From assembly GCA_001784115.1 (NCBI GenBank), contig MFPD01000009.1, positions 7,520 to 71,519 on the forward strand: DNA of 64,000 nucleotides, written 5' to 3'. Below the pieces are notes generated by a model. That model did no database searches and was not told the DNA's origin. It saw only the letters and a program-made list of their open reading frames with translations. The DNA is from Candidatus Levybacteria bacterium RIFCSPLOWO2_02_FULL_37_18. Its GTDB lineage: Bacteria; Patescibacteriota; Microgenomatia; Levybacterales; UBA12049. Positions 12 through 20,758 of the stretch are shown piece by piece (the first letter of the stretch is position 1; the number at the start of each line of letters is the position of its first letter). The translations under genes and the position numbers were made by a program.

Positions 12-467
12 GTGAAGCAATGCGAAGATCAACTGACAAAAGGAAGTACTAGAAAATTCCTCACTCAGACGTACGGATATATTGGCTTGGCTTACTCTCT
101 TTCCAGAAAATACAAACTGGCAGTTTGTATGTTTGCTATGGCTAGTCACACTGCTGAGAAAATTTTCTCCCCGCCCAATCCTTATAATTTTTCCCACGTT
201 TTAAGTCTTGCGGAAATTGTATCTTTTTCCTACGCGGATGCTCTGCCTTTTTACCAACGCGCATTTGAGCTAAACGAAGGATTAAAAAATGAAGATTCGC
301 TCGATAAAGTTGAACATGAAATAAATCGTGAAAATATTATTGAAAGCGCAATTAATCACGGACTATTGGACTTTGCCAGACAAACGCTTTTAACAATTAC
401 CGACTTTCCTAATAACGGAGAAAAAGAAACCGCAAGACTCTGGATTTTTGACCGGTACCCCATATAA
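12..467 (+). CDS. hypothetical protein; the ORF track starts it at GTG 12 and the frame is open to the window edge, so it may be 5'-truncated
   Basis: 151-aa ORF from the six-frame track with no recognisable motif. It ends 360 bp before the next gene. Confidence 0.3.
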   Translation: MKQCEDQLTKGSTRKFLTQTYGYIGLAYSLSRKYKLAVCMFAMASHTAEKIFSPPNPYNFSHVLSLAEIVSFSYADALPFYQRAFELNEGLKNEDSLDKVEHEINRENIIESAINHGLLDFARQTLLTITDFPNNGEKETARLWIFDRYPI

Positions 468-834: not shown

Positions 835-3800
835 ATGCGTAAGAAACAATCGAGTATTGTCGTTTTTTGCTTTATTGCCGTTGTTTTTCTGCTCTTTATA
901 CAGAGAACTGCCTTTGCCTCACGAAGCAAATATTTTGATTTTGGCCCCTACTATAATAAACCTTACGTCCTTGGTGTTTCACTTTCTGTTTTAGAAAACC
1001 TTCCGGCAATTACCATACCAAAAGAAATCGTTCCTCCAAAAGCAACCGGCATTCTGCCGGGCAATCCGCTGCACGGACTTGAAACATTTGCCGAAAACAT
1101 TCAGCTCGGATTCACTTTTGATCCGGTTAAAAAAGAAGAACTCAGGTTGAATTTTGCGGAGGAACGCGTTGCCGAAGCGAAAACATTGCTTGAGGAAGGA
1201 AAAACAGAAGCAGCAAAAGAAGCAATGTATGAATATGACAACCACATTTCTACGCTCACCGACAATATCTCGCATTTGTCCCCCGAACAAAAAAAATCTC
1301 CTGAAAACCTTACCTTGATAAATAAAGCGGAAGAGGCTGCCGCGTCGCATGCAATACTCGCGCAAAGCCTAAGCACTAAGTCTTCTCCTGTGTATGCCGA
1401 AACGTGGAATCAAGCAGAAGAATCAAGCAGAAAACTTCTCGATACCGTTTCAGACATAAAAGGAGAACCGGCTGTGCCAGAGGAGCTAAAAACCGACATT
1501 CAAAAATTAAAAGAGTTCGGAATTGTTTCGGAAGAAGAAAGCAACAAACTTTACAGCTACAAAACAAGAAGTGAATTACGAAGTGAACTTGAAAAACTAT
1601 CAAGCTCCGGACAATTTCCTCTTTCTGAGCTGGCGAAACTCGACACCGGCATTGCCAAACGATATAAAGAATCGTACGATCAACAGCTCTCAAACCTGGA
1701 AGTCGTGGAATTAAAAACATATCAAACACTTGCCCAACCGTCTCAAGATATACTTGCGGATTTAGAAACTTGGAAAGAAGACACTTCAGTTCCGCCGCCA
1801 AACAATATACGACCCTATCTATGGTATAACCATGCACAAGATCTTGCAAAAGAAGTTGACTTATCAAACTTCTCTTCGGATCAACAGGCGCAGGTCGGAA
1901 AATTCTATCCTCAAGCCGTAACCGAAAATAAAACATACTCACCCCCGCCGGTTCCATCGGCAACACCAAGTCCAACACCCCCGCCGGTTCCATCGGGACC
2001 AACCCCATCGGTTTCGCCGACTTCCCCGTCCGTCTCTCCTTCTCCCCAACCAAGCGTTACGCCTGTATCCGCAGCACCTTATATCGGTGAAACAGCCGGA
2101 GCTATACCGGGTGATCCTGCATATTTTTTCAAACAATTTGGAGAACAAGCAAGATTCGCCTTTACTTTTGATCCTGCTCAAAAGGCAAGGCTTAAAATGC
2201 AAGAGGCGGATCGCCGTCTTGCCGAAGCAAGAAAACTGGCATACGATACAAAAAAAGCAAGTCTCTATGAAGCATCGCTTACCCGCTATCGGGAAACAAT
2301 CGTCGATGCCTCACGGTATCTTAAAAATATTTCCAATCCCCAAGAGGCAAAAGACGCTGCAGAACAGATGGAATCCCTTGCAGGACGGCATGAGATAGTT
2401 TTGGAAAAAGGACTCCTTCCTCCGCCCGCAAACAAAACAACTATTATTGGTGATATGATTCTGTCTGCAGAAGACGCAATGGATATAAGCGCTGACAAAC
2501 TCGACAAACCGGCGATTCCTCCTGCCCTTTCTCAGCGTCTCGATGATTTAAAAGCGCAAGGATTGATTCTACCAGAAGAAGCAAACGACTTAGTGATATC
2601 TTCTACGCGCCAACAAGCACGGGAGAAAATCAGAAAACTTGTTGACTTGGAAACATTTCCTCTTGCCGACGCGAAAAAACTTGACGAAGCACAAACGCTT
2701 ACCTCAACGTCTGACTACAATCAATTAGTTGAAGTACGAAAAATAGAAGAGTTGCAAAAACTGAGAGCTGCTCAAGCCGGATTTGCTCAAACTCCCTCCT
2801 TAAAAGCAAACGCACAAACGCTTTCACAACGAGAAATTATACTAACCAGCAGCATTGACACTTCTGTTATCAAACCCGGGGACTTGGCAGGAAGAGAAGA
2901 TCTTCTCAAGGTATATCAAACTATTTCAAAGAATGTCAAACCTATAAATAGTGGCCAGTTTGGTCCTGATGTAAAACCAGGAGTCACCCCAAGCGTAACG
3001 CCGACTCCCACGGGCACTGCTGCCCCGCGATCTTCCGATGCTGTCCTTACAACGTGTCCTATTGGAGCAACATTTAAGCAGTTTGAAGGTTGTGTATGGG
3101 AAGACGGTAAAAAAATAAATGACTATGATCAGTATAAATGCGGTGGTCCCAGACAATACTACTCGTTTGCGGTAAAAAAGTGTATTGCCTGGGAACCCGG
3201 GAAGGGATTTGGTGTTGATGCCGGTCCAATCTGTCCTGTCGGATACGCCTGGTCCTGGCAAACACAAAGTTGCCAAACCTCTCCACTTGTTGTTCCTACT
3301 CCTACAGCCCAACCCGAAGCAATAAATGAAAAAGAACGAAAAGAACGAGAAAAACAATGTCCGGAAGGTTCGACTTATAAATTCCCCGATGGATGCGTAT
3401 GGGACAAAGACGGCAAGTCTGTTTTAGATCCAAAAAGATACGACTGCCCAAGAGGACAATATTATTCGTTTGAAAAACTTGATTGTGTCCCATCGCCCAA
3501 AGAAGGACAACCGTACCCAAAAGATGCTGGTATTACGTGCAAGGAATCCAACGCTGTCTGGAGCTGGCCTGAGGGCGCCTGCAGGCCTATTACAGAACCA
3601 CAACCTCTTGCCCAGACAAAAGATTTTGAAGTCCCAAGACCATTTTTAGTTGCGCCCGACAGTCCGTTTTATTTTGTAAAACAACTTGGAGAAACGATCC
3701 AGCTTGCAACAGCGCTTACTCCGAAAGCAAAAGAAGAAGTACGAATTGCCCAGGCAAAAGAACGGCTAGCCGAAGGATATGATGCGATAATTAAAAAGGA

Positions 3801-6093
3801 TGAAACACAATTTAAAGAAAGCCTGTCGGAGTATACGACAAAAATGCAAGAATTATTTAACGATCTTTCAAAATCGTCACTCTCTTCCGAGGACAAAAAA
3901 AACGTAGGGCAACACTTAAGCAAGCAGGTTGTCGAACAAAACTTGCTGCTGCAAAATATTTCCGCGGTAGCAAGCGATGCGCAGGAAATAAGTATAAATT
4001 CGGCAGTATCTACCACGGTATTAGGAGTAGATAAAGCAGCTGATCTTTCCGGAGAGCCTCCCATTCCTGCTTATGTAAAAGAAAAACTGGAAGCGCTCCC
4101 TAAGGGAATGATTCCCGAGGAAGAAAAGAAAAAATTACTTAAAACGTCTTCCCGTGTTGAAGCAAGGCTCAAACTCGGAAGCCTTGTGTCAGACGGCGTT
4201 CTTACACAAACCGATACTGCTTTTCTGAATGATGATTTTGAAAAAGCTGATATCAACGCAAAAATCAAAACAGAAGAACTTAAAAAACTCGAAGAAATAA
4301 CAACAGTCACAAAACAAAAAGACGAAATAGAGAAAAAAGTTGAAAAGAATGAAAAGATTGTAAAACAGCTTGATGAGTTTGAAAAAACCTTTGAAGTTGG
4401 AAAAGAAGTGCCGGCTGACATCCGCCCGTATGTCAGGCTTACCCGAATCAACGAAATCGCGCAAACGATCCGCCCTGATATTGTAAAACTTGAAGACTTC
4501 TCCAATCGCAGGGACGTGATTTTGGCGGTTGCAACCTTACAGGAAGAGTTTAAGCCTACCAAACAAGCCTTTCAGCAGCTTGCCGACTTTAGAAGAAGAA
4601 ACCCGGGCGCCAGCTTACCTTATGATTTGGCCCGGATTGAGGCTCTGTCATATAGCCTGGGTGTAAGGGATCAGGCTTCTGCCTGTTACCTGCCCCCGCC
4701 CTTCCCGGCCTATACCCCTTGTCCGGCACCGGGGGCAGCCATTCCCATTGTCTCATATTTTGGGCCAGAGGCGGTAATAGCTGGCGAGTTCCGACCCGGC
4801 TGGCCGGGCTCAACTGGACCCAGCGGTCCTTCCGTTGACAAAGACGGCAAACCTTTTATTTACGGCCAAGGACCAAAAGCGGAGAGCTTTGGAGTTTGTG
4901 CCGAGGGCTTTCACTGGATGTACGACTCGGGTGGTTGGTGTATGAGCAACAGCGGCAGCTACACCTCATCAGGCAGCAATACTGCTTATGGCGGGCCGGT
5001 CGGCTCTGGTTATACTCCTTACAGCCCTTACTACAATGCCCCTGGAGTACCTCCTGCCAGTTATGGTTACCAAGATCCTGGCAGCTATCCAACCTATACA
5101 ACTGGTGGTAGCCCATATCCTTATCCACCGCCCAGTTACTATGGTGTGGCGCCAACAAACTATACAACAGATCCTCCTATCGGGACAGTGCCGGGAACAG
5201 GACCGGCTCCAACAGCATCAGGCCAGTGTCCTTCGGGATTTCACTGGATGCCGCCTTCTTATAATCAAGCTGGGTGGTGTATGGCAGACTCGGGAACCTA
5301 TGTGCCAGGCGGTCCTACCCCAACAGGACCTTATTCTCCAAATCTAAATCAAAGCAGTTGCGGTCCTGGATATTACTGGGATGGCCGGGGTTGTATTCGC
5401 ACAAGTCCTACCGATACTTATGGTTCTTGTAGTCCTCCGGGAGGCGGTTGCGGATACAATTCCTATTGGGATTATGGGAGCTGTTCCTGCAGAAGTTCAA
5501 GCATTTATACCGGCGGGGGTAACCCTACATCCGGTAATTCTTGCCAAGGAATCAGTTGTGGCGGAGGATCTTACTTAGACTACTCAACCTGCAGTTGCAG
5601 ATATTCTCCATCCGGACCTACCGGACCTAGTGGAATTGTCACTTCTCCCAATTGTTTCCCACCTGCTGGTGGATGCGGGTCAGGTTGGTTTGACAGCGGG
5701 TCTTGTTCATGTAAACAAGCTTCATCACAAGGATGCTACAACGTATCAGCCTCCAGTTGCGGAAGCGGATTTTATTGGGACTCTTCTGCATGTACATGTC
5801 GCTCAAGCAGCAGCACATCAACTTCAACAGGTTCTTCCGGCAGCACATCAACTTCTTCTTCTACTGGCTCATGTCCATCCGGATATCACTGGATGAGCGA
5901 TAATGGAGGTTGGTGTATGTCAGACGGGAGTTCAAGCAGCAGCACGTCTCCGCCACCTTCAACAACTACTACAACTACAACAGAATCGTCTCCGCCACCT
6001 TCAACAACTACTACAACTACAACAGAATCGTCTCCGCCACCTTCAACAACTGAAACAACCGCACCACCCCCTGCTCAGACGACGTCTCCATAA
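835..6093 (+). CDS. giant secreted modular surface protein (1752 aa). It has a signal peptide, three copies of a ~110-aa alpha-helical module, Pro/Thr/Ser linkers, two ~90-aa Cys-rich repeats, a Gly/Tyr/Pro/Ser-rich Cys-motif tail and a Ser/Thr tandem repeat.
   Basis: The N-terminus MRKKQSSIVVFCFIAVVFLLFIQRTAFA is a signal peptide. A module occurs three times (GFTFDPVKKEELRLNFAEERVAEAK / FAFTFDPAQKARLKMQEADRRLAEAR / FVKQLGETIQLATALTPKAKEEVRIAQAKERLAEG). A Cys-rich unit of the form CPxGxT(F/Y)KxxDGCVW...QYYSF occurs twice. The motif C(P/A)xG(F/Y)HWM...GWCM occurs three times, with several CGxGYYWD...C(T/S)C units. There is no LPXTG motif at the end. Confidence 0.75.
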   Translation: MRKKQSSIVVFCFIAVVFLLFIQRTAFASRSKYFDFGPYYNKPYVLGVSLSVLENLPAITIPKEIVPPKATGILPGNPLHGLETFAENIQLGFTFDPVKKEELRLNFAEERVAEAKTLLEEGKTEAAKEAMYEYDNHISTLTDNISHLSPEQKKSPENLTLINKAEEAAASHAILAQSLSTKSSPVYAETWNQAEESSRKLLDTVSDIKGEPAVPEELKTDIQKLKEFGIVSEEESNKLYSYKTRSELRSELEKLSSSGQFPLSELAKLDTGIAKRYKESYDQQLSNLEVVELKTYQTLAQPSQDILADLETWKEDTSVPPPNNIRPYLWYNHAQDLAKEVDLSNFSSDQQAQVGKFYPQAVTENKTYSPPPVPSATPSPTPPPVPSGPTPSVSPTSPSVSPSPQPSVTPVSAAPYIGETAGAIPGDPAYFFKQFGEQARFAFTFDPAQKARLKMQEADRRLAEARKLAYDTKKASLYEASLTRYRETIVDASRYLKNISNPQEAKDAAEQMESLAGRHEIVLEKGLLPPPANKTTIIGDMILSAEDAMDISADKLDKPAIPPALSQRLDDLKAQGLILPEEANDLVISSTRQQAREKIRKLVDLETFPLADAKKLDEAQTLTSTSDYNQLVEVRKIEELQKLRAAQAGFAQTPSLKANAQTLSQREIILTSSIDTSVIKPGDLAGREDLLKVYQTISKNVKPINSGQFGPDVKPGVTPSVTPTPTGTAAPRSSDAVLTTCPIGATFKQFEGCVWEDGKKINDYDQYKCGGPRQYYSFAVKKCIAWEPGKGFGVDAGPICPVGYAWSWQTQSCQTSPLVVPTPTAQPEAINEKERKEREKQCPEGSTYKFPDGCVWDKDGKSVLDPKRYDCPRGQYYSFEKLDCVPSPKEGQPYPKDAGITCKESNAVWSWPEGACRPITEPQPLAQTKDFEVPRPFLVAPDSPFYFVKQLGETIQLATALTPKAKEEVRIAQAKERLAEGYDAIIKKDETQFKESLSEYTTKMQELFNDLSKSSLSSEDKKNVGQHLSKQVVEQNLLLQNISAVASDAQEISINSAVSTTVLGVDKAADLSGEPPIPAYVKEKLEALPKGMIPEEEKKKLLKTSSRVEARLKLGSLVSDGVLTQTDTAFLNDDFEKADINAKIKTEELKKLEEITTVTKQKDEIEKKVEKNEKIVKQLDEFEKTFEVGKEVPADIRPYVRLTRINEIAQTIRPDIVKLEDFSNRRDVILAVATLQEEFKPTKQAFQQLADFRRRNPGASLPYDLARIEALSYSLGVRDQASACYLPPPFPAYTPCPAPGAAIPIVSYFGPEAVIAGEFRPGWPGSTGPSGPSVDKDGKPFIYGQGPKAESFGVCAEGFHWMYDSGGWCMSNSGSYTSSGSNTAYGGPVGSGYTPYSPYYNAPGVPPASYGYQDPGSYPTYTTGGSPYPYPPPSYYGVAPTNYTTDPPIGTVPGTGPAPTASGQCPSGFHWMPPSYNQAGWCMADSGTYVPGGPTPTGPYSPNLNQSSCGPGYYWDGRGCIRTSPTDTYGSCSPPGGGCGYNSYWDYGSCSCRSSSIYTGGGNPTSGNSCQGISCGGGSYLDYSTCSCRYSPSGPTGPSGIVTSPNCFPPAGGCGSGWFDSGSCSCKQASSQGCYNVSASSCGSGFYWDSSACTCRSSSSTSTSTGSSGSTSTSSSTGSCPSGYHWMSDNGGWCMSDGSSSSSTSPPPSTTTTTTTESSPPPSTTTTTTTESSPPPSTTETTAPPPAQTTSP
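5945..6052 (+). repeat. perfect 42-bp tandem repeat (2.6 copies) encoding ESSPPPSTTTTTTT at the C-terminus of the giant protein
   Basis: cgtctccgccaccttcaacaactactacaactacaacagaat starts at 5945, 5987 and 6029, giving a 42-bp period. Confidence 0.85.
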
Positions 6094-6228: not shown

Positions 6229-7059
6229 CTATCTTGTATTTTTTCCACGCCCCTTAAGCCTGTACGTAACAGTTACCAAACCGGCGGCGGTCGCTACGAC
6301 TGCCGCAGCTACCACAGGATGATCTTTCATTACGGTCCATGCGGTTAATGCTCCAATCTCAAAGGGGTACAAGATTCCTTTCTTGTGCATTGTTTTTAAC
6401 ACTTTCTCCCAGATAATGGGCATGTTGAGTTGTATTAAAAGTTCCAGACGAACTTCTTCTTTTGTTTTAATAATCTCTGCTTGAGTCAGAGAGATTATTG
6501 GAATTGCTGCATCGGAAAACGTAACTGCGTGTATTGCCTCTGCAAACGGATGACCTACAAATTCACTGTTTTTTCGTAATGTTTTCTGTAGATGTTCACC
6601 AACTGCATGAAGTGGAGCTTGCATTGCGTTTGCACGTGCCTCGACTAATCTAAGTCCGTCTTCAAATGAGAGAGCCCCGGCAAAGACCAGAGCACTAATA
6701 AAGCCCACTCCTTGTTCTCCTGTTATGACTTCCGGAGTTTTATAGTCTATATTTTTTTCATTCAAAAAAAGACTGCCGACGTTATAAATAAATCTATTGA
6801 GATCCCGAAACAGAAGCTGTCCTTGATACTCTTTTGACTCGCTAAAAGCCATGTCGGCAAGGGGAATCTGTAAAAATCTCTCTGCCCTTTGATATATACC
6901 AAAAAATTCATGAGAACTTGCGTGTAGTGCTTTTGCTTTTTCGGTTATATCCTCGGAGCTTGGAATAATAAAACCTACCCGTTTTATTCCCCGCTCCGTA
7001 GTAACTACAAACGTTTCTGTTCTACTCGAAACAAAAGTCTCTCTTAAGCTTCGTGCCAT
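6229..7059 (-). CDS. FabD-like acyltransferase-fold protein (malonyl-CoA:ACP transacylase family) whose GHSxG nucleophile motif is replaced
   Basis: [34 protein letters not shown] aligns to FabD [33 protein letters not shown]. The catalytic Ser of GHSLG is absent (GEQGVG) and the N-terminal GQGSQ motif is degenerate. Confidence 0.4.
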   Translation of the reverse strand: [276 protein letters not shown]

Positions 7060-7120
7060 ACGTATAGTGAGAGGTATTATATAGAATCAAGGAAAATACT
7101 CAAGACTAAATTCAAAATGC

Positions 7121-7235
7121 TGGCCCTGACCCATTGTCCCCCGAGTCAGACTCGGAGTATCGTAGGCGCTGAGCCGTTTTACTTCTGAGTTCGGAAAGGG
7201 ATCAGGTAGTTCCAACTCGCTCAAAGGACCAGCAA
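7121..7235 (-). rRNA. rrf: 5S rRNA
   Basis: The reverse complement contains CCGAACTCAGAAGTAAAACGGCTCAGCGCC (the classic CCGAACTCAGAAGTGAAACG box). Its ends pair (gctggtcc...ggccagc). It lies directly downstream of the 23S. Confidence 0.7.
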
Positions 7236-7333: not shown

Positions 7334-7535
7334 TGTGTTATGAATAGCTCCTTGAAAGTGAAGAGAAAGGTCCTGCAGTGCAGGATTTGATCTTTATAGA
7401 AAAACTACTCTTTGACCATTAGTACGGGTAGGCTTAACACTTTACAGTGCTTCCACCGCCCGCCTATCAACGTCGTAGTCTACAACGGGTCTCTCCCCCG
7501 ATTAAATCGGGGAACGAGATATTATCTTGAGGTTT

Positions 7536-7566
<31 letters not shown>

Positions 7567-7787
7567 AGTTAGGAATATAGCTACTCAGCGCTGCCCTTGT
7601 AAGGAACAACTGACACACCAGGGATTCCTCCAATCCAGTCCTCTCGTACTAGGATCGGATCCTCTCAAATCTCGAACGGTTATCCAGGATAGAGTCCGAA
7701 CTGATTCACATCGTTCTTAACCCAGCTCGCGTACCGCTTTAACGGGCGAACAGCCCGACCCTTGGAAGCTTCTCCACCTCCAGGATG

Positions 7788-8619
7788 CGATGCACATACT
7801 CTTTTGTTTCCAAAAGTGCAGACTATATCATCACCCCGAGTTACTCTCGGGGGTTGGCATATGATAACTCGTGTATTTTTTTATCTTGAGCTATCTCATC
7901 CGTCAGTTGACGGATTCAGTCGTTACGGGGTCAAGCTCTAGAAGACAGATGACAGAATACAGAAAACCTGCCTACCGACAGGCAGGCAGGACAGATTGCA
8001 GATAAAACAGATCAAAAACAGAAATTCTTAATAGGAGTATGTTTTCCAGTTTTTAATAAATTGCTGAAGTTGTTTAGATTCAATTTTATATCTATCAATC
8101 AGAATGTCACACAGCTTCTGATTAATACGACTAATTCTTTTTGCGAGAATTTTTACTACTTGAACATGAGTAATGAGTTCATCTGATGTTCCCATTGCTA
8201 TTTCAAGAAAACGCTTAAACTCTTTTTCAGATCTTTTTTTGCCAAATCCTTCAGCAATATGCGCTGGAATTGATTCTCCGCATTCGATTAGTTGACCTTT
8301 TAGTTTTCTATGACTCTCTGGAATTTGATTTGCTAAGTCATAAACTAGTGGCAATGCTTCCAAAGCATTCTTGTAAACTTGAAGATCTGTTACCTCTCGA
8401 ATCATGAGAATAGCGTATCATACTTCCGTACTTTCTGTTCTATCCGTTATCCGTCTTCTGTTCTCTGTCATCCGTCCTCAAAAACCGACTTCCCACGGTA
8501 TTGTCCATTGACTTTATCATAACTAGAGAAGATTCATTTAGTCAAGAGGAGTTCACCGTTATTAGCCAAATTTGCTTCAATAATTACTTATTGAAGGGCC
8601 CAAACGCTATTTGCGTTTT
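7788..8619 (-). mobile_element. group I intron-like insertion in 23S (832 nt) carrying a four-helix-bundle ORF
   Basis: Flanking exons read GATGTCGGCT | ... | CATCCTGGAGG, which matches E. coli 23S GTCGGCTC|ATCACATCCTGGGG. A group I S-element-like motif GATGATATAGTCTGC lies ~60 nt from the 3' boundary. Long ACAGAA-word inverted arms flank the ORF (7940-8000 and 8420-8480). Confidence 0.5.
8028..8405 (-). CDS. four-helix-bundle protein (TIGR02436, 23S rRNA intervening-sequence protein family)
   Basis: 125 aa with EALPLVYDLANQIPESHRKLKGQLIECGESIPAHIAEGFGKK...FKRFLEIAMGTSDEL, a family signature. It is encoded inside the 23S insertion. Confidence 0.7.
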   Translation of the reverse strand: MIREVTDLQVYKNALEALPLVYDLANQIPESHRKLKGQLIECGESIPAHIAEGFGKKRSEKEFKRFLEIAMGTSDELITHVQVVKILAKRISRINQKLCDILIDRYKIESKQLQQFIKNWKTYSY

Positions 8620-8867
8620 AGCCGACATCGAGGTGCCAAACCGCCACGTCGCTGTGAACGCTTGGTGGCGATTAGCCTGTTATCCCCGGGGTAGCTTATA
8701 TCCGTTAAGCTCCGTCGCTACCACTAGCGTGCGGAGGATCACTAACACCTGCTTTCGCATCTGCTCGACTTGTAGGTCTCGCAGTTAAGCTGGCTTATGC
8801 GTTTGCGCTATCAGTCCGATTTCCATCCGGACTTAGCCAACCTTTGTACAACTCCGTTGCAATGTAG

Positions 8868-9692
8868 GCAATATTGTTAAGAAAGTTAATCTAATTTGTA
8901 AAGAAAAGAAGTAACAATAAACGGAGATATCAACTTCTTTAGTCTACTAAAAGATGAGGCACGAATATAAATTTCTATACCATCAATTTGCCGTCTTGGA
9001 ATTGCTTCCAATCCAAACTTTTCTTTTAAAACCTGACAAAGAAGAGTAACCTCTTCGATGGTAAAATTATGAGTACATATCAATTTCCCCCAACACTCTT
9101 TTGATTTATACGATCCATCATCCATAAACCAGATAGCGAGTCCCAATTCTGTTAAAAGTTCATTTATATTTTTGGGTATTATCTTGGTTTTTGCTTGATA
9201 GAACAATTCTCTAAAGACAAGAAAGTCGGACAAGCTTAAAGTAGTGAAACCAAAACGCTCAAAGTTACCTCATCGGCATTTTTAATGCTATATTCTACTT
9301 TTAGTCTTGCTGACTTTCTATTTGGAGAAAGCTCGATATGACCATCTCCTAGAATAAGACCCACTAATACTTCCTTTTGTAAATTAGAAAGTTTTAGAGT
9401 CTTTTTATATTCTTCTAAGAGGGTTTGCCTCATCCTAGACACTTTCTATCCGAGCATTTCTGTCGGATTCTCATAGTCGCCTATGAGTTCAGACCATATC
9501 ATACTCTAGTATTAGAGCCCAACATATAGTCGTTGAGGGATCCTGCGCATTTAGCTGAAGGACTTCCCTGCTGATTAACTGCACCAGAAAGATTATCACT
9601 TCTATTTTATCAGAAGTACTTCTGGATACACCAGTTGTTCCAGCATATAGTTGGTTTGCAAATAGGAATTACTTCCTAATGGACCCATAATT
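8868..9692 (-). mobile_element. group I intron in 23S domain IV/V carrying a LAGLIDADG homing-endonuclease gene
   Basis: The 23S sequence is interrupted between GGGGAGGTTGACTCAA and CCTACATTGCAACGGAGTTGTACAAAGGTTGGCTAAGTCC. An S-element-like motif GTATGATATGGTCTGAAC sits at 9478-9495. The ORF lies in the 3' part. Confidence 0.55.
8886..9442 (-). pseudogene. LAGLIDADG homing endonuclease split into two ORFs (68 aa + 115 aa) by a TAA stop and a 1-nt frame change at 9233-9238
   Basis: Motif 1 LVGLILGDGHIE lies in ORF 9236-9442 and motif 2 LAIWFMDDGSYK in ORF 8886-9233. The two frames differ by one base. Confidence 0.7.
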
Positions 9693-9800
9693 GAGTCAAC
9701 CTCCCCAGTTAAACTGCCCGCCAGACACTGTCCCTTCGCCGGATTTTTATGCGGCAAAAAAGTAATGATTGCTCATTTCAAAGAGAGGTATTTCACTTTT

Positions 9801-9968
9801 GCTTGCACGAAGCAAAAGAAAATCCTAATTTCAAAATCCTAAATCCTAAATAAATTACACTTTCAAAAATCCAAATTTACAAACGTTTTAGAATTTTGAA
9901 CATTGTGATTTTGATATTATTTAGAATTTAGATATTAGTGCTTAGAATTTCCTTGTGCTCCGCACAAG
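9801..9968. repeat. AT-rich ~165-bp intervening-sequence-like insertion in 23S (L1-stalk / H76-78 region), copy 1
   Basis: gcttgcacgaagc...aaaatcctaatttcaaaatcctaaatcctaaataaattacac...atttagaatttagatattag...ccttgtgctccgcacaag. It is closed by hairpins and is almost identical to 11140-11298. Confidence 0.6.
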
Positions 9969-10149
9969 CTCCCTCCTATTCTCAACAGTTAAAATAAACC
10001 CTCAAATGCCAAGCTACAGTAAAGCTCCCGGGGTCTTTTTGTCCATGGATAACTAGGCCGCGTCTTCACAGCCATCTCAATTTCGCCGGGTAACAGATCA
10101 AGACAGTTATTCAGTCGTTCTACCTTTCGTGCGGGTCGGAACTCCAAAA

Positions 10150-10520
10150 GAAATTCAAAATTCAAAGTTCAAAATTGCAATGCAAAATTAAAAATTGAAG
10201 TACGTTTGTTTTTATACTCGATCGCTTTTTCAAGCCTCATAGTCGCCTATGAGTTCGGACTATATCATCCTCCACTTTATGGAATTCTGGCATGTAGTCT
10301 CTGAGGGTTCTCGCCTGAGGCGAGTCTTCCCTGCTGATTGACTCCACCAAACAGATTGTTACTTATCATCCTAGACTTAGATATCAGGATCTAAAGTACT
10401 GTCGGATACAGAGTAATTCCAGCATATAGCCAGATTTTGCACTTTACTTTTGTAGAACTCTTTCTCGACTGTTTTTGTTCTATTCCTAAGTGCTGTATCT
10501 TTCGATACATTCGGGCAAGC
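10150..10520 (-). mobile_element. compact ORF-less group I intron in 23S (1917-1931 region, CCTTGTCGGG...|...AGTTCCGACC)
   Basis: The rRNA motif CCTTGTCGGG (~10530) and AGTTCCGACCCGCACGAAAGG (~10120) are separated by ~370 nt. That stretch contains an R-like CAGAGACTACATGCC and an S-like GATGATATAGTCCGAAC (10255-10270) ~100 nt from the 3' end. Boundaries are approximate. Confidence 0.5.
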
Positions 10521-10562
10521 TTACGTGACCCGCAAACTTTTCGCCCGACAAGGAACTTCGCT

Positions 10563-10942
10563 CGATCAGATTGCCAAATCAATCTAAATGGACTATATCT
10601 TCCCCAGTTTTTATTGGAGTCTGACGTATAGTCTCTGAGGATTCTTAGAACTTTTGAGATTCTTAAAAATTGAGACAGAGAAACATCCTTCTCCATCAAC
10701 AAACCCTACAATCCAATTTGCAGTTCCAAGTCTTTCCTGCTGATTATCTCTACTGGTATCATTGTCACTTGGTGAACTCATCTATAATTCTAAGTTACCA
10801 TAGTAGATCCAGAATTGCAAGACTTTCCAGCATATGGTCAGATTTTCATTTTCATGCCTCGGCTAGACATGGGAAATGGAGGATTCTTCCACCAAATGGC
10901 GGACATACCTCACTATGGCAGCGGAGTTTTCTTTCAAACTCT
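10563..10942 (-). mobile_element. compact ORF-less group I intron in 23S, inserted at GGU|AGCGAAGUUCC
   Basis: Joining the 5' exon ...AACTGTTCTATGGT (ending in U) to the 3' exon AGCGAAGTTCCTTGTCGGG restores the conserved CTAAGGTAGCGAAATTCC. The intron ends in G (gatcg). It has an R-like CCTCAGAGACTATACG and an S-like GGAAGATATAGTCC (10590-10603). Confidence 0.55.
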
Positions 10943-11139
10943 ACCATAGAACAGTTATAGTTACTGCTGCCGTTCACTGGAGCTTTCGCCGCGAGCCTCC
11001 CCCTTGCGAGGGTCACCCACAACGATTAACTTACCAGCACTGGGCAGGTGTCAGCCCCTATACGTTAGCTTTCGCTTTTGCAGAGACCTATGTTTTAGAT
11101 AAACAGTCGCTAAATAAACTTTTGCTGTGGCCTCGCGCG

Positions 11140-11298
11140 GAACGCAAGAAAATCCTAATTTCAAAATCATAAATCCTAAATAAATTACACTTTCAAAAAT
11201 CCAAATTTACAAACGTTTTAGAATTTTGAACATTGTAATTTTGATATTATTTAGAATTTAGATATTAGTGCTTAGAATTTCCTTGTGCTCCGCACAAG
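11140..11298. repeat. AT-rich ~160-bp intervening-sequence-like insertion in 23S (helix 63 variable region), copy 2
   Basis: Near-identical to 9801-9968 and also preceded by CCTTGTGCGGAGCACAAGG on the rRNA-sense strand. The flanks match the E. coli ACTTCGGGAGAAGG...CTGTTTATTAAAAACA region. Confidence 0.6.
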
Positions 11299-11962
11299 GC
11301 AGGGCATCTCCCAAAGGTTACGCCCAGTTTTTTTGCCGAGTTCCTTGATCTGCTGTCTCCCGGTCGCCTTAGTCTTCTCGACCAACCCACCTGTGTCGGT
11401 TTACGGTACGGAATAAAAGAACACTCCTCACGAATCTTTTCTCGCGGACTGAAAGCTTAGAATGTTGTCCCCGCGTTTGACGCGGGAACTTCCCATCGCC
11501 ACTCAGTTAGACACTCTGACGGATTTTCCAATCAAAACTACTTTGTAACTTGGTGTCGCATATAGCGGCAAATCCTCTTCCACTCTGGTCAATCCTTGAG
11601 TTATAACGCATTCTCTTATGTAGTCGAATATCAACGACTTGTCCATCGGGTTACCCCGAGATTAGCTCGGAACACCCTTAGGGCCGACTCACCCTCCGCT
11701 GACTTACAGTGCGGAGGAAACCTTGGGTTTTCGGCGTCCCGGTTTCTCACCGGGATCTCGCTACTCATACCGGCATTCTCACTTCGTATCGCTCCACCAT
11801 GCCTTACAACACAGCTTCGCGGCAATACGAACGCTCCCCTACCGTCCGCCAAAGGCGGACCTCCATCTTCGGCAAAAGGCTTAATCCTCGTTACATTTTC
11901 GGCGCTACAAACCTGCCACGTTAGACGTGGACATCCTCCAGTGAGCTGTTACGCTTTCTTTA

Positions 11963-11993
<31 letters not shown>

Positions 11994-12226
11994 TTGTCTC
12001 TGGATTGTAACTTCCTTCAAAACTTAGCCTTTATTTAGAGGCCTTAGATGGGAGTCTGGGCTGTTTCCCTTTTGACTGATCAGCTTAGCCCGACCAGCCT
12101 GACTAGAACGAATATAATCTAGTATTCGGAGTTTGATTGGTTACGACAGCTTGCGCCGCCGAAGACCATTCAGTGCTCTACCCCTAGATCATTGTATCGT
12201 CCCGCTATACCAAAATATATTTCGGG

Positions 12227-12258
<32 letters not shown>

Positions 12259-12489
12259 ATTGCCTCTAACCTCAAGTCATCTCAACCCATTGCTACGGAT
12301 ACGAGTGCGGGCCTTCCCCCGACTTTCATCGGGGTTCACCCTGCTCAAGGTTAGCTCACCCGGTTTCGGGTCTATCCCAATGTACTAAGTAGCTCGGTTA
12401 GAGCTTGCTTTCACTACGCCTCCGCCAGAAACTGGCTTAAGCTTAAACGCACACTAAGATAACTCACCGGTTCATTCTTCAATAGGCAC

Positions 12490-12650
12490 GAGATCACCAG
12501 AGGACAGAAGACAGAATAACGGAAGACGGATATCAGATGACAGAGATACAAAACATCAAGATTTTAATCCTGATCTTCTGTCTTCTGTTTCTCTGCAATC
12601 TGTCCTCTGACTTCTGTACTCTGTCCTCCGGCTCTCTCTGCTTGTCAGCC
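12490..12650. repeat. helix-25-region IVS-like insertion made of ACAGAAGACAGAA / TTCTGTCTTCTGT words forming a long imperfect hairpin
   Basis: gaggacagaagacagaataacggaagacgg...ttctgtcttctgtttctctgcaatctgtcctctg, immediately upstream of the conserved CCCTCACGGTACTAGTTCACTATCGGTC 23S block. Confidence 0.5.
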
Positions 12651-12687
12651 GACAATTTCAGGTCTATTTCATCCCCCTCCCGGGGTG

Positions 12688-12726
<39 letters not shown>

Positions 12727-13364
12727 AGGTCTTGGTATTTAGTCTTGGAACGTGGTCGCCCCAGATTCCCACAGAGTACTTCCTCCATGGTACTTAGGTA
12801 CAAACTATCAGTGTCTTACATTTCGCATACAGGACTTTCACCCTCTATGGTCAGCTATTCCAAGCTGTTCTGCTATATAAAACACCAAATATCGTCTGCC
12901 CTGCAACCCCGAGCTGAGCTCGGTTTAGACTTCTCCCTTTTCGCTCGCCGCTACTTAGGGAATCTCTATGATTTCTTTTCCTCCGGGTACTTAGATGTTT
13001 CAGTTCCCCGGGTACCCTACCAAACACTATTATCAGCCAAAGGCTGAACTTTTATGTTTGGTTCCCGCGTTTGACGCGGTCGATTGCTCGATTCGGAAAC
13101 CGCCGGATTACAGGATTATGACTCCTACCCGACGAGTATCGCCGCCATATGCGTCCTTCCTCGGCCAAAACCTCCTAGGCATCCATTATCGGCATTATGA
13201 GTAGTCTTTTATAAAGACGCTCTACTCCATCCTGATTTCGATACTCAGGATGAAGTCCTTCTCTTCACTTGTCAAGGAGCGAATTGCGATAGCAATTCTC
13301 ATCTCTTTTATGTTTTTGAATAAACTCTCCTCAATACCAGGAGGGCTTGTTCAAAAACATAGGG

Positions 13365-13437
13365 TGGACCCGGGGGGAGTCGAACCCCCTACCTCCTCGT
13401 TGCAAACGAGGCGTTCAACCGGATAAACTTCGGGCCC
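13365..13437 (-). tRNA. tRNA-Ala (anticodon UGC)
   Basis: Reverse complement GGGCCCGAAGTTTATCCGGTTGAACGCCTCGTTTGCAACGAGGAGGTAGGGGGTTCGACTCCCCCCGGGTCCA. It has a 7-bp acceptor stem with G3-U70, a D-loop with GG, anticodon loop tTTGCAAa and T-loop TTCGACT. Confidence 0.85.
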
Positions 13438-13859: not shown

Positions 13860-15197
13860 TCATTCTCGACGGTACTCCTCTCTTAATTGATCCGTTTCTC
13901 TCGCCCGTCTTAGTTTTCTCAACGCCTTTCTTTCTATTTGCCGGGCCCGCTCTCCCGTAAGGCCTATTTTTTTGCCTATTTCCTCAAGTGAATGGGGATG
14001 CTCATTGCCTAAACCGAATCGGAGGGCAAGCACGGCGCTTTCATTTGGACTGAGTGTCTCAAACAAAGCCGCCAGTTCATCTTTTAATAATTCTCTGTCT
14101 GCAGCAGAAGGGGTATCCGCGCCATTATCCGCGATTCCGCCGATAATTTCCGAATCATCTTCATAGCTTACCGGTCGGTTGTACGAAACAACCGTTGTTA
14201 TTTGTAAGGTATACAACGCATCCCGCACCTGTTTCTCTGTACATCCTGCAACTTTCGCGATTTGCTTTGCCGTTGGACTTTGTCCCGATTTTGCCAGTTT
14301 TCTTTGCGCGCTATTTATTTTACTTACCATTTCCAAAAAATTAATAGGGTGTCGTATGGTTTTTGCATTGTTTGCAATCCCACGGATAATTGCTTGGAGA
14401 ATCCAATATGTCGCATATGTAGAAAATTTATATCCGCGTTGGTAATCAAACTTCTCAACCGAACGCATAAGTCCGCCATTGCCATCTTGAACAGCGTCTT
14501 TCAATGGAGAATGATTCGATTCGTATCTTTTAGCGATCGGAATTACCAAACGGAGGTTTGCTGCGATAATATGATTTTTTACCTCTATTCCTCTTCGAAT
14601 TGCCGCATCGACCATTCCTTCCAACATTCCTCTTTTTTCTCCTTCCGGCAAGGATTTTCCTGCCAAAAGACAAACTCCGGTAACGGTTTTTAGTGTTGCT
14701 CTTTCTGCTCTATGGGTTTGCCGGTCTTTCTGCACATCTGCAGACTCTTCTTCAATTGTAAGCATTACCAAATCACTTAGTCCTATCCTTGCAAGAAATG
14801 CCGTTGCGTCCTTTTCGGATACATGAGAAACCAATATGTCTCGTTCTTTTTTTTCTGGTTTTCCGTTTTTCCTCAAAAAGGTAACTTTAGTAACAGTTGC
14901 GCCCGGGTTATATAATTTTTTGACCATCAAGGCAGTTCTACCAAACGCGAGTTCTTGAAAAAGAACCTGTTCTTGCTCCGGGGTAAGAAGAGGGGTTCCG
15001 TTTATATCTCGAAGATACAATGCAAAGGTGTTATCATAAATACCTGCACTTCCTCCATCATTGTTTTCGATATCGGAGGCATCAAAAACAACTCCTCCCA
15101 ATGCAAATGCGTCATGATCCACAGGCTCGATTCCTTCACCTCGCCCATGCCTCCCGCGCGCTTGCTCCCGATCTGTTATTACCATAAAAGCAAGCAA
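13860..15197 (-). CDS. rpoD: RNA polymerase sigma-70 factor (RpoD-like)
   Basis: Regions 2-4 are present: IIAANLRLVIPIAKRY, FSTYATYWILQAIIRGI, SLEEIGKKIGLTGERARQIERKALRKLR. Confidence 0.85.
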   Translation of the reverse strand: MLAFMVITDREQARGRHGRGEGIEPVDHDAFALGGVVFDASDIENNDGGSAGIYDNTFALYLRDINGTPLLTPEQEQVLFQELAFGRTALMVKKLYNPGATVTKVTFLRKNGKPEKKERDILVSHVSEKDATAFLARIGLSDLVMLTIEEESADVQKDRQTHRAERATLKTVTGVCLLAGKSLPEGEKRGMLEGMVDAAIRRGIEVKNHIIAANLRLVIPIAKRYESNHSPLKDAVQDGNGGLMRSVEKFDYQRGYKFSTYATYWILQAIIRGIANNAKTIRHPINFLEMVSKINSAQRKLAKSGQSPTAKQIAKVAGCTEKQVRDALYTLQITTVVSYNRPVSYEDDSEIIGGIADNGADTPSAADRELLKDELAALFETLSPNESAVLALRFGLGNEHPHSLEEIGKKIGLTGERARQIERKALRKLRRARETDQLREEYRRE

Positions 15198-15330: not shown

Positions 15331-16254
15331 CTATTTTTTCTGATCAGATAACCAGCGCTCAAGTTCGAGTGCTGCCGCACAGCCAAATCCGGCTGCGGTA
15401 ATAGCCTGTTTGTATTGACTGTCATGAACATCACCTGCCACAAACACACCGGGAACATTAGTTAGATAATGATCGTGGACAACAATAAAGCCGTGGTCAT
15501 CAATGTGAATTCCCTTAAAGACAGCAGTATTGGGCACGTGTCCGATTGCCACAAACACACCGTCTGTTGGAAACTCACTTTCTCCTCCTGTTTGGGTATC
15601 TTTTAATTTTATGCCATTCACATTTTGATCGCCTAATATCTCTATAACTTCTTTATTGAACAAAAATTGTATCTTAGGATTATTCTTGGCTTTTTGCTGC
15701 ATTACCTGGCTTGCTTTAAGACTGTCTCGGCGATGGACAATAGTTACGCTCTCTGCGAAACGACTCAATACAAGCGCTTCTTCCATAGCAGAGTCCCCTC
15801 CTCCGACTACAACTACCTTTTTATTTCTAAAAAATGCGGCGTCGCATGGCGCGCACGAAGAAACACCACGGCCAATTTTTTCCATTTCTCCTTTTGCTCC
15901 AAGCCATTTTGTATCTGCGCCCGTTGCAATAAGTACCGACTTACTCTTGAATGTTTTATCTTCTGCATAAAGTGTGAATGGGTAAGAAGTAAAATCTCCG
16001 TTGGTAAAATCAACTTCTTCTATTATAGCTCCGTGTTTTTCTGCTTGTTTTCGCATCGCCGTCATTAAATCAGGGCCTTGAATACCTTCGGCAAACCCCG
16101 GGTAATTTTCAACAAGCGTTGTAAGCATGAGCTGTCCTCCCCATTTTCGTCCGGCAATGATGAGGGTTTTGAGATTAGTCCGAGTAGTATAAATAGCAGC
16201 GGTCAAACCAGCTGGACCACTACCTATAATAATTACGTCATATACTTGTTCCAT
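15331..16254 (-). CDS. trxB: thioredoxin-disulfide reductase
   Basis: FAD motif IIIGSGPAGLTAAIY, redox CAPCDA, NADPH motif VVVGGGDSAMEEA. Confidence 0.85.
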   Translation of the reverse strand: MEQVYDVIIIGSGPAGLTAAIYTTRTNLKTLIIAGRKWGGQLMLTTLVENYPGFAEGIQGPDLMTAMRKQAEKHGAIIEEVDFTNGDFTSYPFTLYAEDKTFKSKSVLIATGADTKWLGAKGEMEKIGRGVSSCAPCDAAFFRNKKVVVVGGGDSAMEEALVLSRFAESVTIVHRRDSLKASQVMQQKAKNNPKIQFLFNKEVIEILGDQNVNGIKLKDTQTGGESEFPTDGVFVAIGHVPNTAVFKGIHIDDHGFIVVHDHYLTNVPGVFVAGDVHDSQYKQAITAAGFGCAAALELERWLSDQKK

Positions 16255-19417: not shown

Positions 19418-19753
19418 TCAAATGTATTGTTTTCGGTATAGGCCAAGGAATTGAAGTATTTTTTTAAGCATTCGCATGATTACTCCTGGTTTTTTTTCTC
19501 CGTGAGTCAAAGCTTCTGTGACAGTATCTCCATCAGGATTGCCAGCTTCTTGTTGCTCCATGAGAAGTCTTTGCCGAGCAGCCAGCAGCGCTGGTGTTTT
19601 CTGGTTGGTTGGTTGAGACTCTCTATCAACTTGTTGGAGAGTTTCATTGGAAACTACTTGAGGTATGGCCTCATGAGATTCTGGGACAGGACGGGGATTA
19701 ACCGAGGCAACTTCTGCTGACCCTGGTTCGTTCATAGACCTATTGTACCACAC
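19418..19753 (-). CDS. hypothetical protein (111 aa, low complexity)
   Basis: ORF only. Confidence 0.3.
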   Translation of the reverse strand: MWYNRSMNEPGSAEVASVNPRPVPESHEAIPQVVSNETLQQVDRESQPTNQKTPALLAARQRLLMEQQEAGNPDGDTVTEALTHGEKKPGVIMRMLKKILQFLGLYRKQYI

Positions 19754-20463
19754 TACTCTGCTGTTGCTTCGGGACCTTTATTGTGGAAAGCGGCAATAAA
19801 TTCTTTAATTTTTTCCTTATCAAGACTTTCTAATTTCTCTATTTTCCCCCAAGCAGTTACGGCAATAGGAGCGTCTAAATTTAGACGAGGAACAATAATA
19901 AGCCGCTTCCAATCTTTTAAGAAACTCGATAATTCAGAAACCAGTTTTTTACACTCGTTGGAAGAAAATGAACTGGGTAATTCTACTTCTTTTGCTGGAG
20001 GATTCTCTGGCGTAAATGCACTCATGGTTGGATCTTTTAACTCAATGTTCATCCTATGCAGTGGTGCAGCTGACTCTGTTGCAGTAGGATTGTTTTGAAC
20101 ATCTTCTCCTTCATGAGCATAAGCATTTGAAATTGGAAATTTGAAATTGGAAATTTGAAATTTCTTTTCGCAATTATAAGAAATTACAACGTATCCATGC
20201 TCCAAAGAATGAATTAAGTATCCATCTGATAAAACCCTATCATACACTCCCGGTTTTGCCCAGATGGGAAAATGTTTCCCGGACGTCGGCGGGTTTGAAT
20301 TATATTTTATACCTGAAATATCCGAAACATGATCTCGACCTATATCGGAAATCGCTTGTCCTGGAAGCGGTTTATTCGACTCAGTTATTGCCCACCACAA
20401 AATTCCTACAATGAAGAGAATACCTACAACACTTGCTATAATTATTTTACTACTCGTTTTCAA
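19753..20463 (-). CDS. DUF3105-family membrane-anchored protein with an in-frame GAAATTTGAAATT repeat insertion
   Basis: PPTSGKHFPIWAKPGVY, SLEHGYVVISYNC, RLIIVPR, IAVTAWG. The segment EKKFQISNFKFPISNAYAHE is encoded by the 20110-20170 repeat. Confidence 0.6.
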   Translation of the reverse strand: MKTSSKIIIASVVGILFIVGILWWAITESNKPLPGQAISDIGRDHVSDISGIKYNSNPPTSGKHFPIWAKPGVYDRVLSDGYLIHSLEHGYVVISYNCEKKFQISNFKFPISNAYAHEGEDVQNNPTATESAAPLHRMNIELKDPTMSAFTPENPPAKEVELPSSFSSNECKKLVSELSSFLKDWKRLIIVPRLNLDAPIAVTAWGKIEKLESLDKEKIKEFIAAFHNKGPEATAE

Positions 20464-20699
20464 TTTTGAATTTTCAATTTTGAATTTTCAATTTCTTTTG
20501 CATCATACCCTACCCTTTTTATTATTGCAATAATATGTTTGGGAGAAATTTTTTGCGGGTCGAAAGCAACTTCTGTTTGTTGTCTGGCATAGCTGGTGTT
20601 TGAACTGAATACTCCTTGGGTATCCTCCAATTCCCCATCGATATTCATCGAACAACTGACACAGTGCATACCGATAATGTTTAAATTAATTTTATTCAT
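20460..20699 (-). CDS. copZ: heavy-metal-associated copper chaperone (CopZ-like)
   Basis: GMHCVSC metal-binding motif. The C-terminal tail EIENSKLKIQN is encoded by the word repeat. Confidence 0.75.
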   Translation of the reverse strand: MNKINLNIIGMHCVSCSMNIDGELEDTQGVFSSNTSYARQQTEVAFDPQKISPKHIIAIIKRVGYDAKEIENSKLKIQN

Positions 20700-20758
20700 A
20701 TATGAACAACTTTTAATTTCGAGCTATAGTTTTGAGTTTTGCCTTTTGAGTTTTGAGT

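Follow-up and report, generated by a model that had tools for sequence, protein, structure and literature searches.

The gene at positions 835 to 6093 of a 64,000-nucleotide stretch of contig MFPD01000009.1, from Candidatus Levybacteria bacterium RIFCSPLOWO2_02_FULL_37_18 (the whole stretch is called the window here), encodes a real, conserved exported protein that is found only in Microgenomates. Its most probable place is at the cell surface or in the envelope. Our preferred reading, to which we give a probability of roughly 45%, is that the product is exported by the Sec pathway, stabilised by disulfides and held at the surface or envelope non-covalently, and that its C-terminal aromatic hairpins bind a conserved ligand, probably wall glycan. 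The sequence was already public as a hypothetical or DUF5667 protein. What is new is a single-locus family confined to Microgenomates, with two families of Cys hairpins that have no relatives in the collections searched, a conserved core and variation in repeat number. To our knowledge no member of the Microgenomates has been cultivated, and we know of no protein identified as building their cell surface or mediating cell contact.

The translated gene matches OGH44703.1 exactly, and OGH34455.1 is a variant differing by one residue. OGH44703.1 is annotated "hypothetical protein" and belongs to a Candidatus Levybacteria metagenome-assembled genome (MAG), which bears out the suggestion of an earlier note, made from the letters alone, that the DNA came from a Candidate Phyla Radiation (CPR) cell. 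Every element described in that note was recovered where it had been placed. Large secreted hypothetical proteins are common in CPR bacteria. A literature search returned nothing on Cys-rich surface proteins of Microgenomates, and an NCBIfam scan of the whole protein matched no family.

Export signal and tests for an anchor

835..6093, forward strand: whole gene, with an ATG start, encoding a 1752-residue precursor.
835..918, forward strand: Sec-type signal peptide, residues 1-28, read by rule, with predicted cleavage after AFA.
919..1035, forward strand: conserved mature N-terminal peptide, residues 29-67, with the motif D-x-G-P-Y-Y ... L-G ... L-P.

The mature protein has a mass of about 186.5 kDa and a pI of 5.1. 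Its signal peptide is laid out as MRKKQSS (n-region), IVVFCFIAVVFLLFI (h-region) and QRTAFA followed by S (c-region and cleavage site). It thus has the basic n-region, the h-region of 10-15 residues and the small-x-small site of Sec and signal peptidase I substrates, as read by rule and not by a trained predictor. Conservation was scored on an alignment of 30 ortholog sequences. The same layout, with a small-x-A site, was present in 30 of 30, 4-6 residues ahead of the invariant YYDFGPYY motif. Hydrophobic 19-residue windows (Kyte-Doolittle >1.6) were confined to residues 3-29 in a scan of the whole protein. The peptide that follows the cleavage site is invariant at D35, G37, P38, Y39, Y40, L46, G47, L56 and P57, has a mean pairwise identity of 0.59 and is kept by all divergent members of the family.

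The absence of a sortase or S-layer homology motif, as claimed in the earlier note, held in regular-expression, hydrophobicity and Pfam/NCBIfam scans alike. No C-terminal signal of the LPXTG type was found, and the matches to a loose regular expression were internal and at chance level. The protein ends in ...PPPAQTTSP, where there is no hydrophobic stretch. No lipobox L-[AS]-[GA]-C was found; the only N-terminal Cys, C12, lies within VVFCFI of the h-region and is not conserved among orthologs. No SLH, CW_binding, LysM, GW, CWB2 or similar domain was matched in Pfam or NCBIfam at E<=1 with the whole protein or at E<=10 with its parts. Two orthologs (P0015 and P0030) carry an extra amphipathic end, TEKNILQF(A/I)L(E/D)(M/I)L(F/L)G(N/K)LR, in the last ~25 residues after the Pro-rich tail, and the remaining orthologs terminate in ...PAPxxSP. 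This extra peptide may be an alternative anchor.

The signal peptide, the lack of any further hydrophobic segment, the even number of mature Cys residues (38) and a DsbA-like protein with a CPYC motif encoded in the window all agree with the earlier description of the protein as secreted. Judged by its sequence, it looks exported and extracellular.

Mid-protein Cys repeats

3040..3279, forward strand: Cys repeat A, residues 736-815, with pairs C741/C753, C769/C783 and C800/C813 and three predicted beta-hairpins.
3355..3588, forward strand: Cys repeat B, residues 841-918, with pairs C842/C854, C871/C884 and C902/C916.

All 38 mature Cys residues fall within pairs spaced by 11-16 residues or within 4-Cys units, and 19 disulfides are predicted. 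The two repeats of the pattern CPxGxT(F/Y)KxxDGCVW...QYYSF described earlier correspond to repeats A (C741-C813) and B (C842-C916), which are 41% identical to each other (E=1.5e-14). The spacings between successive Cys residues are 11, 15, 13, 16 and 12 in repeat A and 11, 16, 12, 17 and 13 in repeat B. An AlphaFold2 model of the mid Cys domain (mean predicted local distance difference test score, pLDDT, 78.8; predicted TM-score, pTM, 0.67) contains six beta-hairpins, one for each consecutive Cys pair, and so points to sequential disulfide stapling. From the spacing, the even Cys counts, the model and the DsbA-like and DsbD-type proteins encoded in the window, we infer that the Cys residues are oxidised in pairs.

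An exhaustive HMMER search with the mid Cys domain against 1.84 billion representative proteins matched nine proteins, all belonging to this family. Pfam scans of four of them found two or three copies of DUF5667 in each, and in the longer matches the domain lay at the position typical of the family. Foldseek searches of the Protein Data Bank (PDB) with the model of this domain gave nothing below E=0.03. Sequence searches of the PDB with a whole-family profile, a Cys-domain profile and the C-terminal HWM unit described below returned matches at chance level only. The Cys patterns, which the earlier note could not assign to any named domain, likewise had no Pfam match above threshold and no match in the PDB.

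The conserved C-terminal array

4405..4749, forward strand: highly conserved junction, residues 1191-1305, including a Pro-rich loop C1284-x11-C1296.
4897..4944, forward strand: HWM hairpin 1, CAEGFHWMYDSGGWCM, residues 1355-1370 (hidden Markov model (HMM) domain E=9e-30).
4963..5220, forward strand: Tyr/Pro/Gly/Ser-rich segment, residues 1377-1462, of low complexity yet conserved.
5227..5283, forward strand: HWM hairpin 2, CPSGFHWMPPSYNQAGWCM, residues 1465-1483 (HMM domain E=1.8e-12).
5359..5799, forward strand: array of five CG.G(aromatic)..D...C units, residues 1509-1655, four of them 4-Cys units ending in C-x-C.
5872..5919, forward strand: HWM hairpin 3, CPSGYHWMSDNGGWCM, residues 1680-1695 (HMM domain E=5e-11), the target of the DNA motif scans.

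Within the C-terminal 470 residues, Ser accounts for 21%, Gly for 15%, Pro for 14%, Thr for 13% and Tyr for 8%. The three HWM...GWCM units and the CG.G(aromatic) units reported earlier were both found, the latter numbering five here and 0 to 6 among orthologs. By their HMM domain E-values, the three HWM units are significant repeats of one another. In the first of them H, W, M, Y, D, G, G, W, C and M are invariant. W, Y, F and H abound in the hairpins, which we count as a lead towards glycan binding. The junction is free of gaps, has a mean pairwise identity of 0.75 with many invariant columns, and is kept by all divergent members. In the Tyr-rich segment identity is 0.69 over aligned columns, with the Y, P and G columns near-invariant. 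The C-terminal region has no relative in Pfam or the PDB, and all that a database search with residues 1335-1660 retrieved were C-terminal fragments of this family, which differ in their number of units.

Distribution and conservation

We collected 32 orthologs, mostly full length and 49-58% identical, from Daviesbacteria, Blackburnbacteria and Levybacteria MAGs; all of them match PF18915 (DUF5667). The third HWM hairpin was also used for a search at the DNA level, in which HWMxDxGGWCM was back-translated to a pattern with a chance expectation, by our own arithmetic, of ~0.01 in 596 Gb. Among genomes of 185,579 species the pattern occurred in 44 stretches, all within open reading frames (ORFs) recognised by the family HMM or within short tails of the same gene. 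In metagenomes it occurred in 89 stretches, of which 63 lay in ORFs with other parts of the family and 26 were cut by the edge of the locus. The motif search in other CPR proteins that the earlier note had proposed therefore returned only this gene family or its edge-truncated tails. Where the names of pattern-bearing genomes are informative, they are Daviesbacteria, Levybacteria, Blackburnbacteria, Woykebacteria and Gottesmanbacteria. By these sequence searches the family is restricted to Microgenomates. Among loci L004-L047, many pattern-bearing contigs go under the title 'uncultured Gammaproteobacteria bacterium', and two others under 'Dehalococcoidia' and 'Planctomycetia', respectively. 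One of the 'Gammaproteobacteria' contigs encodes a protein (P0010) that NCBI names as Daviesbacteria, and the non-Microgenomates titles look like placeholders or mis-binning.

Mean pairwise identity differed between parts of the protein as follows.

HWM units: 0.79-0.82.
Cys repeat A: 0.70.
Helical modules: 0.53-0.60.
Linkers: 0.23-0.45, with ~50% gaps.

The C-terminal junction and the HWM hairpins are thus the most conserved parts. All 12 Cys residues of the mid domain, C1284/C1296 and the first HWM unit are invariant, and the number of mature Cys residues, which ranges from 22 to 54, is even in 28 of the 30 orthologs. Divergent members, from a Woykebacteria MAG and two other MAGs, have neither the mid Cys domain nor the C-x-C units, and retain the N-terminal peptide and all three helical modules together with the junction and 2-5 HWM hairpins. 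The signal peptide and N-terminal peptide, followed by three DUF5667 modules, the junction and HWM hairpins, therefore make up the invariant core.

A closed Daviesbacteria chromosome of 820,589 bp contains one locus, and the gene takes up ~0.65% of this 820-kb genome. Its share of the genome, its single locus in a closed genome and its conservation across several candidate phyla therefore make it a good candidate for a core surface component.

The same data bear on whether the protein is, as the earlier note suggested that it could be, a host-attachment adhesin that projects from the episymbiont and recognises a specific host structure with its arrays of Cys hairpins. We consider this possible but doubtful. 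The protein is secreted, large, modular and rich in repeats, the length of its Pro/Thr linkers and the number of its C-terminal units vary, and repeat copy number differs even between near-identical strains, all of which would suit an adhesin. In a preprint on the same groundwater system, cryogenic transmission electron microscopy of CPR cells revealed an S-layer, no outer membrane, and pili at contacts with hosts, and host-attached cells were seen in the same groundwater datasets (10.1101/2020.05.14.094862). The literature consulted, including that study, ascribes CPR attachment to type IV pili (10.1101/2020.05.14.094862), which speaks against an adhesive role for this protein. So does the pattern of variation, which affects linkers and unit number and not the hairpin sequence. 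Conservation is highest in the putative binding hairpins, which would be unexpected if hosts and receptors differ, and there is a single locus with ~55% identity across Levybacteria, Daviesbacteria, Blackburnbacteria, Gottesmanbacteria and Woykebacteria. With its single locus, its cross-phylum identity and its conserved putative binding end, the protein fits a structural role or a ligand that is itself conserved more closely than it fits an adhesin specific to a host.

Helical modules and linkers

1036..1929, forward strand: helical module M1, residues 68-365, with a DUF5667 match at residues 72-163.
1930..2079, forward strand: Pro/Ser/Thr/Val-rich linker 1, residues 366-415, recognised by composition and of variable length.
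2080..2964, forward strand: helical module M2, residues 416-710, the second DUF5667 copy, from Pfam and repeat comparison.
3640..4404, forward strand: first part of helical module M3, residues 936-1190, the third DUF5667 copy, a predicted antiparallel helical bundle.

The three-fold helical module described in the earlier note is present and its repeats were confirmed; it is not anonymous, being three copies of Pfam DUF5667. The modules, of ~300 residues each (residues ~68-365, 416-710 and 936-1283), are 23-28% identical in pairs (E=2e-13 to 8e-21). The protein scored 157.7 bits against PF18915 (gathering cut-off 27; E=1.1e-46) over three stretches, which places it in the family, and M1 on its own scored 73.5 bits. 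DUF5667 has no assigned function, and a literature search found no paper mentioning it. The modules here are ~3 times the length of the Pfam domain, and the giant protein differs from plain DUF5667 in that the module is triplicated and fused to arrays of Cys hairpins. AlphaFold2 modelled M3 as a confident antiparallel helical bundle over residues ~940-1140 (model residues 10-210; pLDDT 72-89 in blocks of 10 residues). A Foldseek search of the PDB with this model brought up nothing but generic designed helical repeats, the best of them at E=0.37.

Each helical module also contains a SHOCT-like motif, for example DLKAQGLILPEEANDL, at window positions ~1500-1560, ~2540-2600 and ~4080-4140 (residues ~222-240, 570-588 and 1083-1100). 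A divergent ortholog gave a weak SHOCT match (E=0.0026), below the cut-off. The motif may be an oligomerisation element.

Residues 370-425, around linker 1, consist of 36% Pro, 20% Ser, 11% Val and 11% Thr, and 47% of the linker 1 alignment is gaps. These linkers matter for a second alternative, that the protein forms the S-layer lattice of these Microgenomates, which we regard as quite unlikely. A mass of 186 kDa and a pI of 5.1 are within the usual range of S-layer proteins, and export without a covalent anchor from a single locus conserved in the lineage would be in keeping with such a role. An S-layer was imaged on groundwater CPR cells, and its protein was not named in that study (10.1101/2020.05.14.094862). 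The ~470 low-complexity, probably non-globular residues and the long Pro/Thr linkers are better suited to a fibril or tether than to a two-dimensional lattice, and neither SLH nor any other S-layer domain was matched. S-layer proteins rarely contain many Cys residues and are usually poorly conserved, which we also count against a lattice-forming role.

Comparison with known Cys-rich and wall-binding proteins

A permissive Pfam scan gave a CBM_14 (PF01607) signal of 15.4 bits (E=0.022), short of the gathering cut-off of 22.1 bits, and weak CBM_14 matches were found in 8 of 12 family members (best E=3.5e-4). The two share a six-Cys module of similar size, and the hairpin C-P-x-G-x-x-(F/Y)...C-x-W aligns. 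A database search for CBM14 sequences returned four proteins. An hhalign comparison with a profile of eight CBM14 sequences, from the PDB and the database matches, gave a probability of 3.7% over 19 aligned columns, a figure of limited sensitivity because the CBM14 profile is shallow; the aligned element was the CPxG..F..C.W hairpin. In the giant protein the second Cys is separated from the third by 15-16 residues, compared with ~5 residues in CBM14, and the sequential Cys pairing suggested by AlphaFold2 is a further difference. Membership of CBM14 thus failed on score, on profile-profile comparison and on Cys spacing, and the resemblance is at the level of the hairpin only. The tandem CBM14 protein 8in6 was among the weak Foldseek matches of the mid Cys domain.

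The same weak list contained megalin, Pfs25, TNFR2, HER3, R-spondin and netrin, as well as laminin-EGF repeats. EGF-like, TNFR and furin-like proteins are ladders of small, disulfide-closed beta-hairpins with C-x-x-G-aromatic motifs, as the giant protein is predicted to be. No match to them had E<0.03, TM-scores were 0.1-0.18 and no Pfam match was found, so the protein does not belong to these groups on present measures. Their repeats are eukaryotic, whereas the giant protein is bacterial and restricted to Microgenomates; the likeness is an analogy and homology is not demonstrated.

Pneumococcal choline-binding proteins (PspA/CbpA, CW_binding_1) have a helical N-terminal part, a proline-rich linker and C-terminal aromatic beta-hairpin repeats. 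The giant protein resembles them, in a comparison made from general knowledge, in its signal peptide, helices, Pro-rich linker and C-terminal hairpins, which would attach it to a wall polymer without a covalent bond, and in lacking LPXTG. It differs in that its hairpins are predicted to be disulfide-closed and in coming from an unrelated lineage, and PF01473 was not matched even at E<=10. No clear homology to adhesin or S-layer domains, the outcome that the earlier note had named as telling against its proposal, was found in Pfam, NCBIfam, the PDB or Foldseek searches.

A proposed role at the cell surface

In the mechanism that we favour, the protein would be exported and its signal peptide cleaved, and an extracytoplasmic DsbA-like oxidoreductase would close each Cys pair to give an aromatic beta-hairpin. 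The helical modules and linkers would form an extended spacer, like beads on a string, whose length would be free to drift. The C-terminal array of junction, Tyr/Pro-rich segment, HWM hairpins and CG.GYYWD units would be the binding end, and its multivalent aromatic contacts with a conserved polymer would keep the protein in place non-covalently. This polymer would most likely be a cell-wall glycan, either the cell's own or its partner's. The design would parallel that of Gram-positive surface proteins in which helices at the N-terminus are combined with a proline-rich linker and, at the C-terminus, with repeats of aromatic hairpins.

Several observations weigh against this proposal. AlphaFold2 modelled the junction and the first HWM unit with low confidence (pLDDT 30-60), and no known wall-binding domain was detected in the Pfam and NCBIfam scans. 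The CBM14 signal is below the Pfam threshold and the hhalign probability is low. A common origin of the mid-domain and C-terminal hairpins is not supported, as cross-HMM domain scores were ~0 bits. The conserved N-terminal peptide could equally be the anchor, in place of the C-terminal end. Nor is there a conserved neighbourhood: at three ortholog loci and all 8-kb motif loci, no neighbours were in common with the flanking ORFs of the window (12-467 and 6229-7059).

Glycan binding by the hairpins, if it occurs, would make them a small binding module of a new kind. A bolder version, which we think unlikely, is that the protein is the major envelope protein of Microgenomates, in an S-layer or surface fibril, with a new class of bacterial disulfide-stapled, wall-glycan-binding aromatic hairpin (HWM...GWCM and CG.GYYWD). 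The hairpins would then be an invention of a single CPR lineage and a prokaryotic counterpart of two kinds of eukaryotic module, the small Cys-rich carbohydrate-binding ones and those of EGF/TNFR type. Two sequence families, the mid 6-Cys repeat and the HWM hairpin, were found nowhere else among the protein representatives and reference genomes searched, and could be used as lineage markers.

The 42-bp tandem repeat and the integrity of the assembly

5945..6070, forward strand: 42-bp tandem repeat encoding ESSPPPSTTTTTTT, with two perfect copies and a third that is 76% identical, in the Pro/Thr-rich tail.

Tandem Repeats Finder reported positions 5945-6051 (period 42 bp, 2.5 copies, 100% match), and the diverged third copy extends to 6070. 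Within its 90%-identity cluster, three proteins of 1738 residues are shorter by exactly one ESSPPPSTTTTTTT unit (1.5 copies instead of 2.5), and another protein of the cluster has one Ser fewer in a Ser/Thr run. The variation in repeat number that the earlier note had proposed to look for is therefore seen between near-identical assemblies. At the level of assemblies, the difference in the 42-bp repeat is either a true copy-number polymorphism or an assembly collapse.

Low-complexity DNA and a perfect tandem repeat occur within the gene, and some orthologous genes are split by frameshifts in their C-terminal region, as might be expected if it were a chimera of misassembled repeats. The modules follow one another in the same order in over 30 independent assemblies, which come from several sites and include a closed chromosome. 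Apart from the 42-bp unit, the internal repeats have diverged in their DNA (71-88% identical) and are therefore old duplications. The probability of an artefact is negligible. For the architecture, misassembly, which the earlier note had raised as grounds for doubt, is refuted; the uncertainty is confined to how many copies of the 42-bp unit there are.

Several MAGs (loci L017, L028, L033, L044 and L021) have the ortholog broken into two overlapping frames, in the C-terminal repeats or close to them, and at L021 a tail ORF of 136 residues is all that remains of it. A protein of 1554 residues with an aberrant end (P0020) is one such case. These orthologs show either assembly frameshifts or real decay.

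Thiol and copper genes in the window

28068-28925, forward strand: membrane-anchored DsbA/Thioredoxin_4-like protein with a CPYC active-site motif.
15334-16254, reverse strand: TrxB-like reductase.
19756-20463, reverse strand: DUF3105 protein.
20762-21805, reverse strand: DsbD_2 membrane protein fused to a cupredoxin domain.
21919-24393, reverse strand: copper-type P-type ATPase with an HMA domain.

The reverse-strand genes between 15334 and 24393 form a thiol and copper handling cluster. The presence of the DsbA-like, DsbD_2-cupredoxin and TrxB-like genes indicates that the organism is able to form extracytoplasmic disulfides, and the DsbA-like CPYC protein is a plausible oxidase for those predicted in the giant protein. 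The giant protein implies that an anaerobic groundwater symbiont relies heavily on forming disulfides outside its cytoplasm.

The copper ATPase, the cupredoxin-DsbD fusion and the DUF3105 gene lie 14-18 kb from the giant gene, and each HWM unit contains His, Met and Asp residues that vary little or not at all. These features could indicate that the HWM...GWCM units are metal sites, for example for copper, and that the protein sequesters or senses metal at the surface. This is very improbable: the copper genes are not adjacent to the giant gene, none of them neighbours its orthologs, no metal-binding family was matched, and the even counts and hairpin spacing of the Cys residues are better explained by disulfides.

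Other features of the genomic context

A scan for promoters and terminators gave counts at or below the shuffled expectation, with no convincing site upstream of the 835..6093 gene. The other ORFs of the window include no paralog of the giant protein and none with its N-terminal motif. The gene is convergent with an unannotated ORF of 276 residues and adjoins a 5S gene (7118-7233) and an intron-containing 23S rRNA gene. The 23S gene (7412-13209, reverse strand) is matched by Rfam in two pieces. Two group I introns (9470-9703 and 10236-10532) lie within it, as does, at 8031-8405, the ORF of a 23S-rRNA intervening-sequence protein (PF05635). A tRNA-Ala gene (13363-13437) and a sigma-70 gene (13863-15197) follow, and no 16S gene is adjacent. 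Further along, on the reverse strand, are genes for an ATP-dependent DNA ligase with N, M and C domains (34382-36217) and a Fic/DOC protein (37477-38526). A Fic protein is also encoded upstream of the ortholog at one other locus (L003). On a Daviesbacteria contig (L001), a gene of 5984 residues with MerR, NYN, Hint/intein and Peptidase_S74 matches lies ~6 kb downstream of the ortholog (19590-21517) and runs off the locus.

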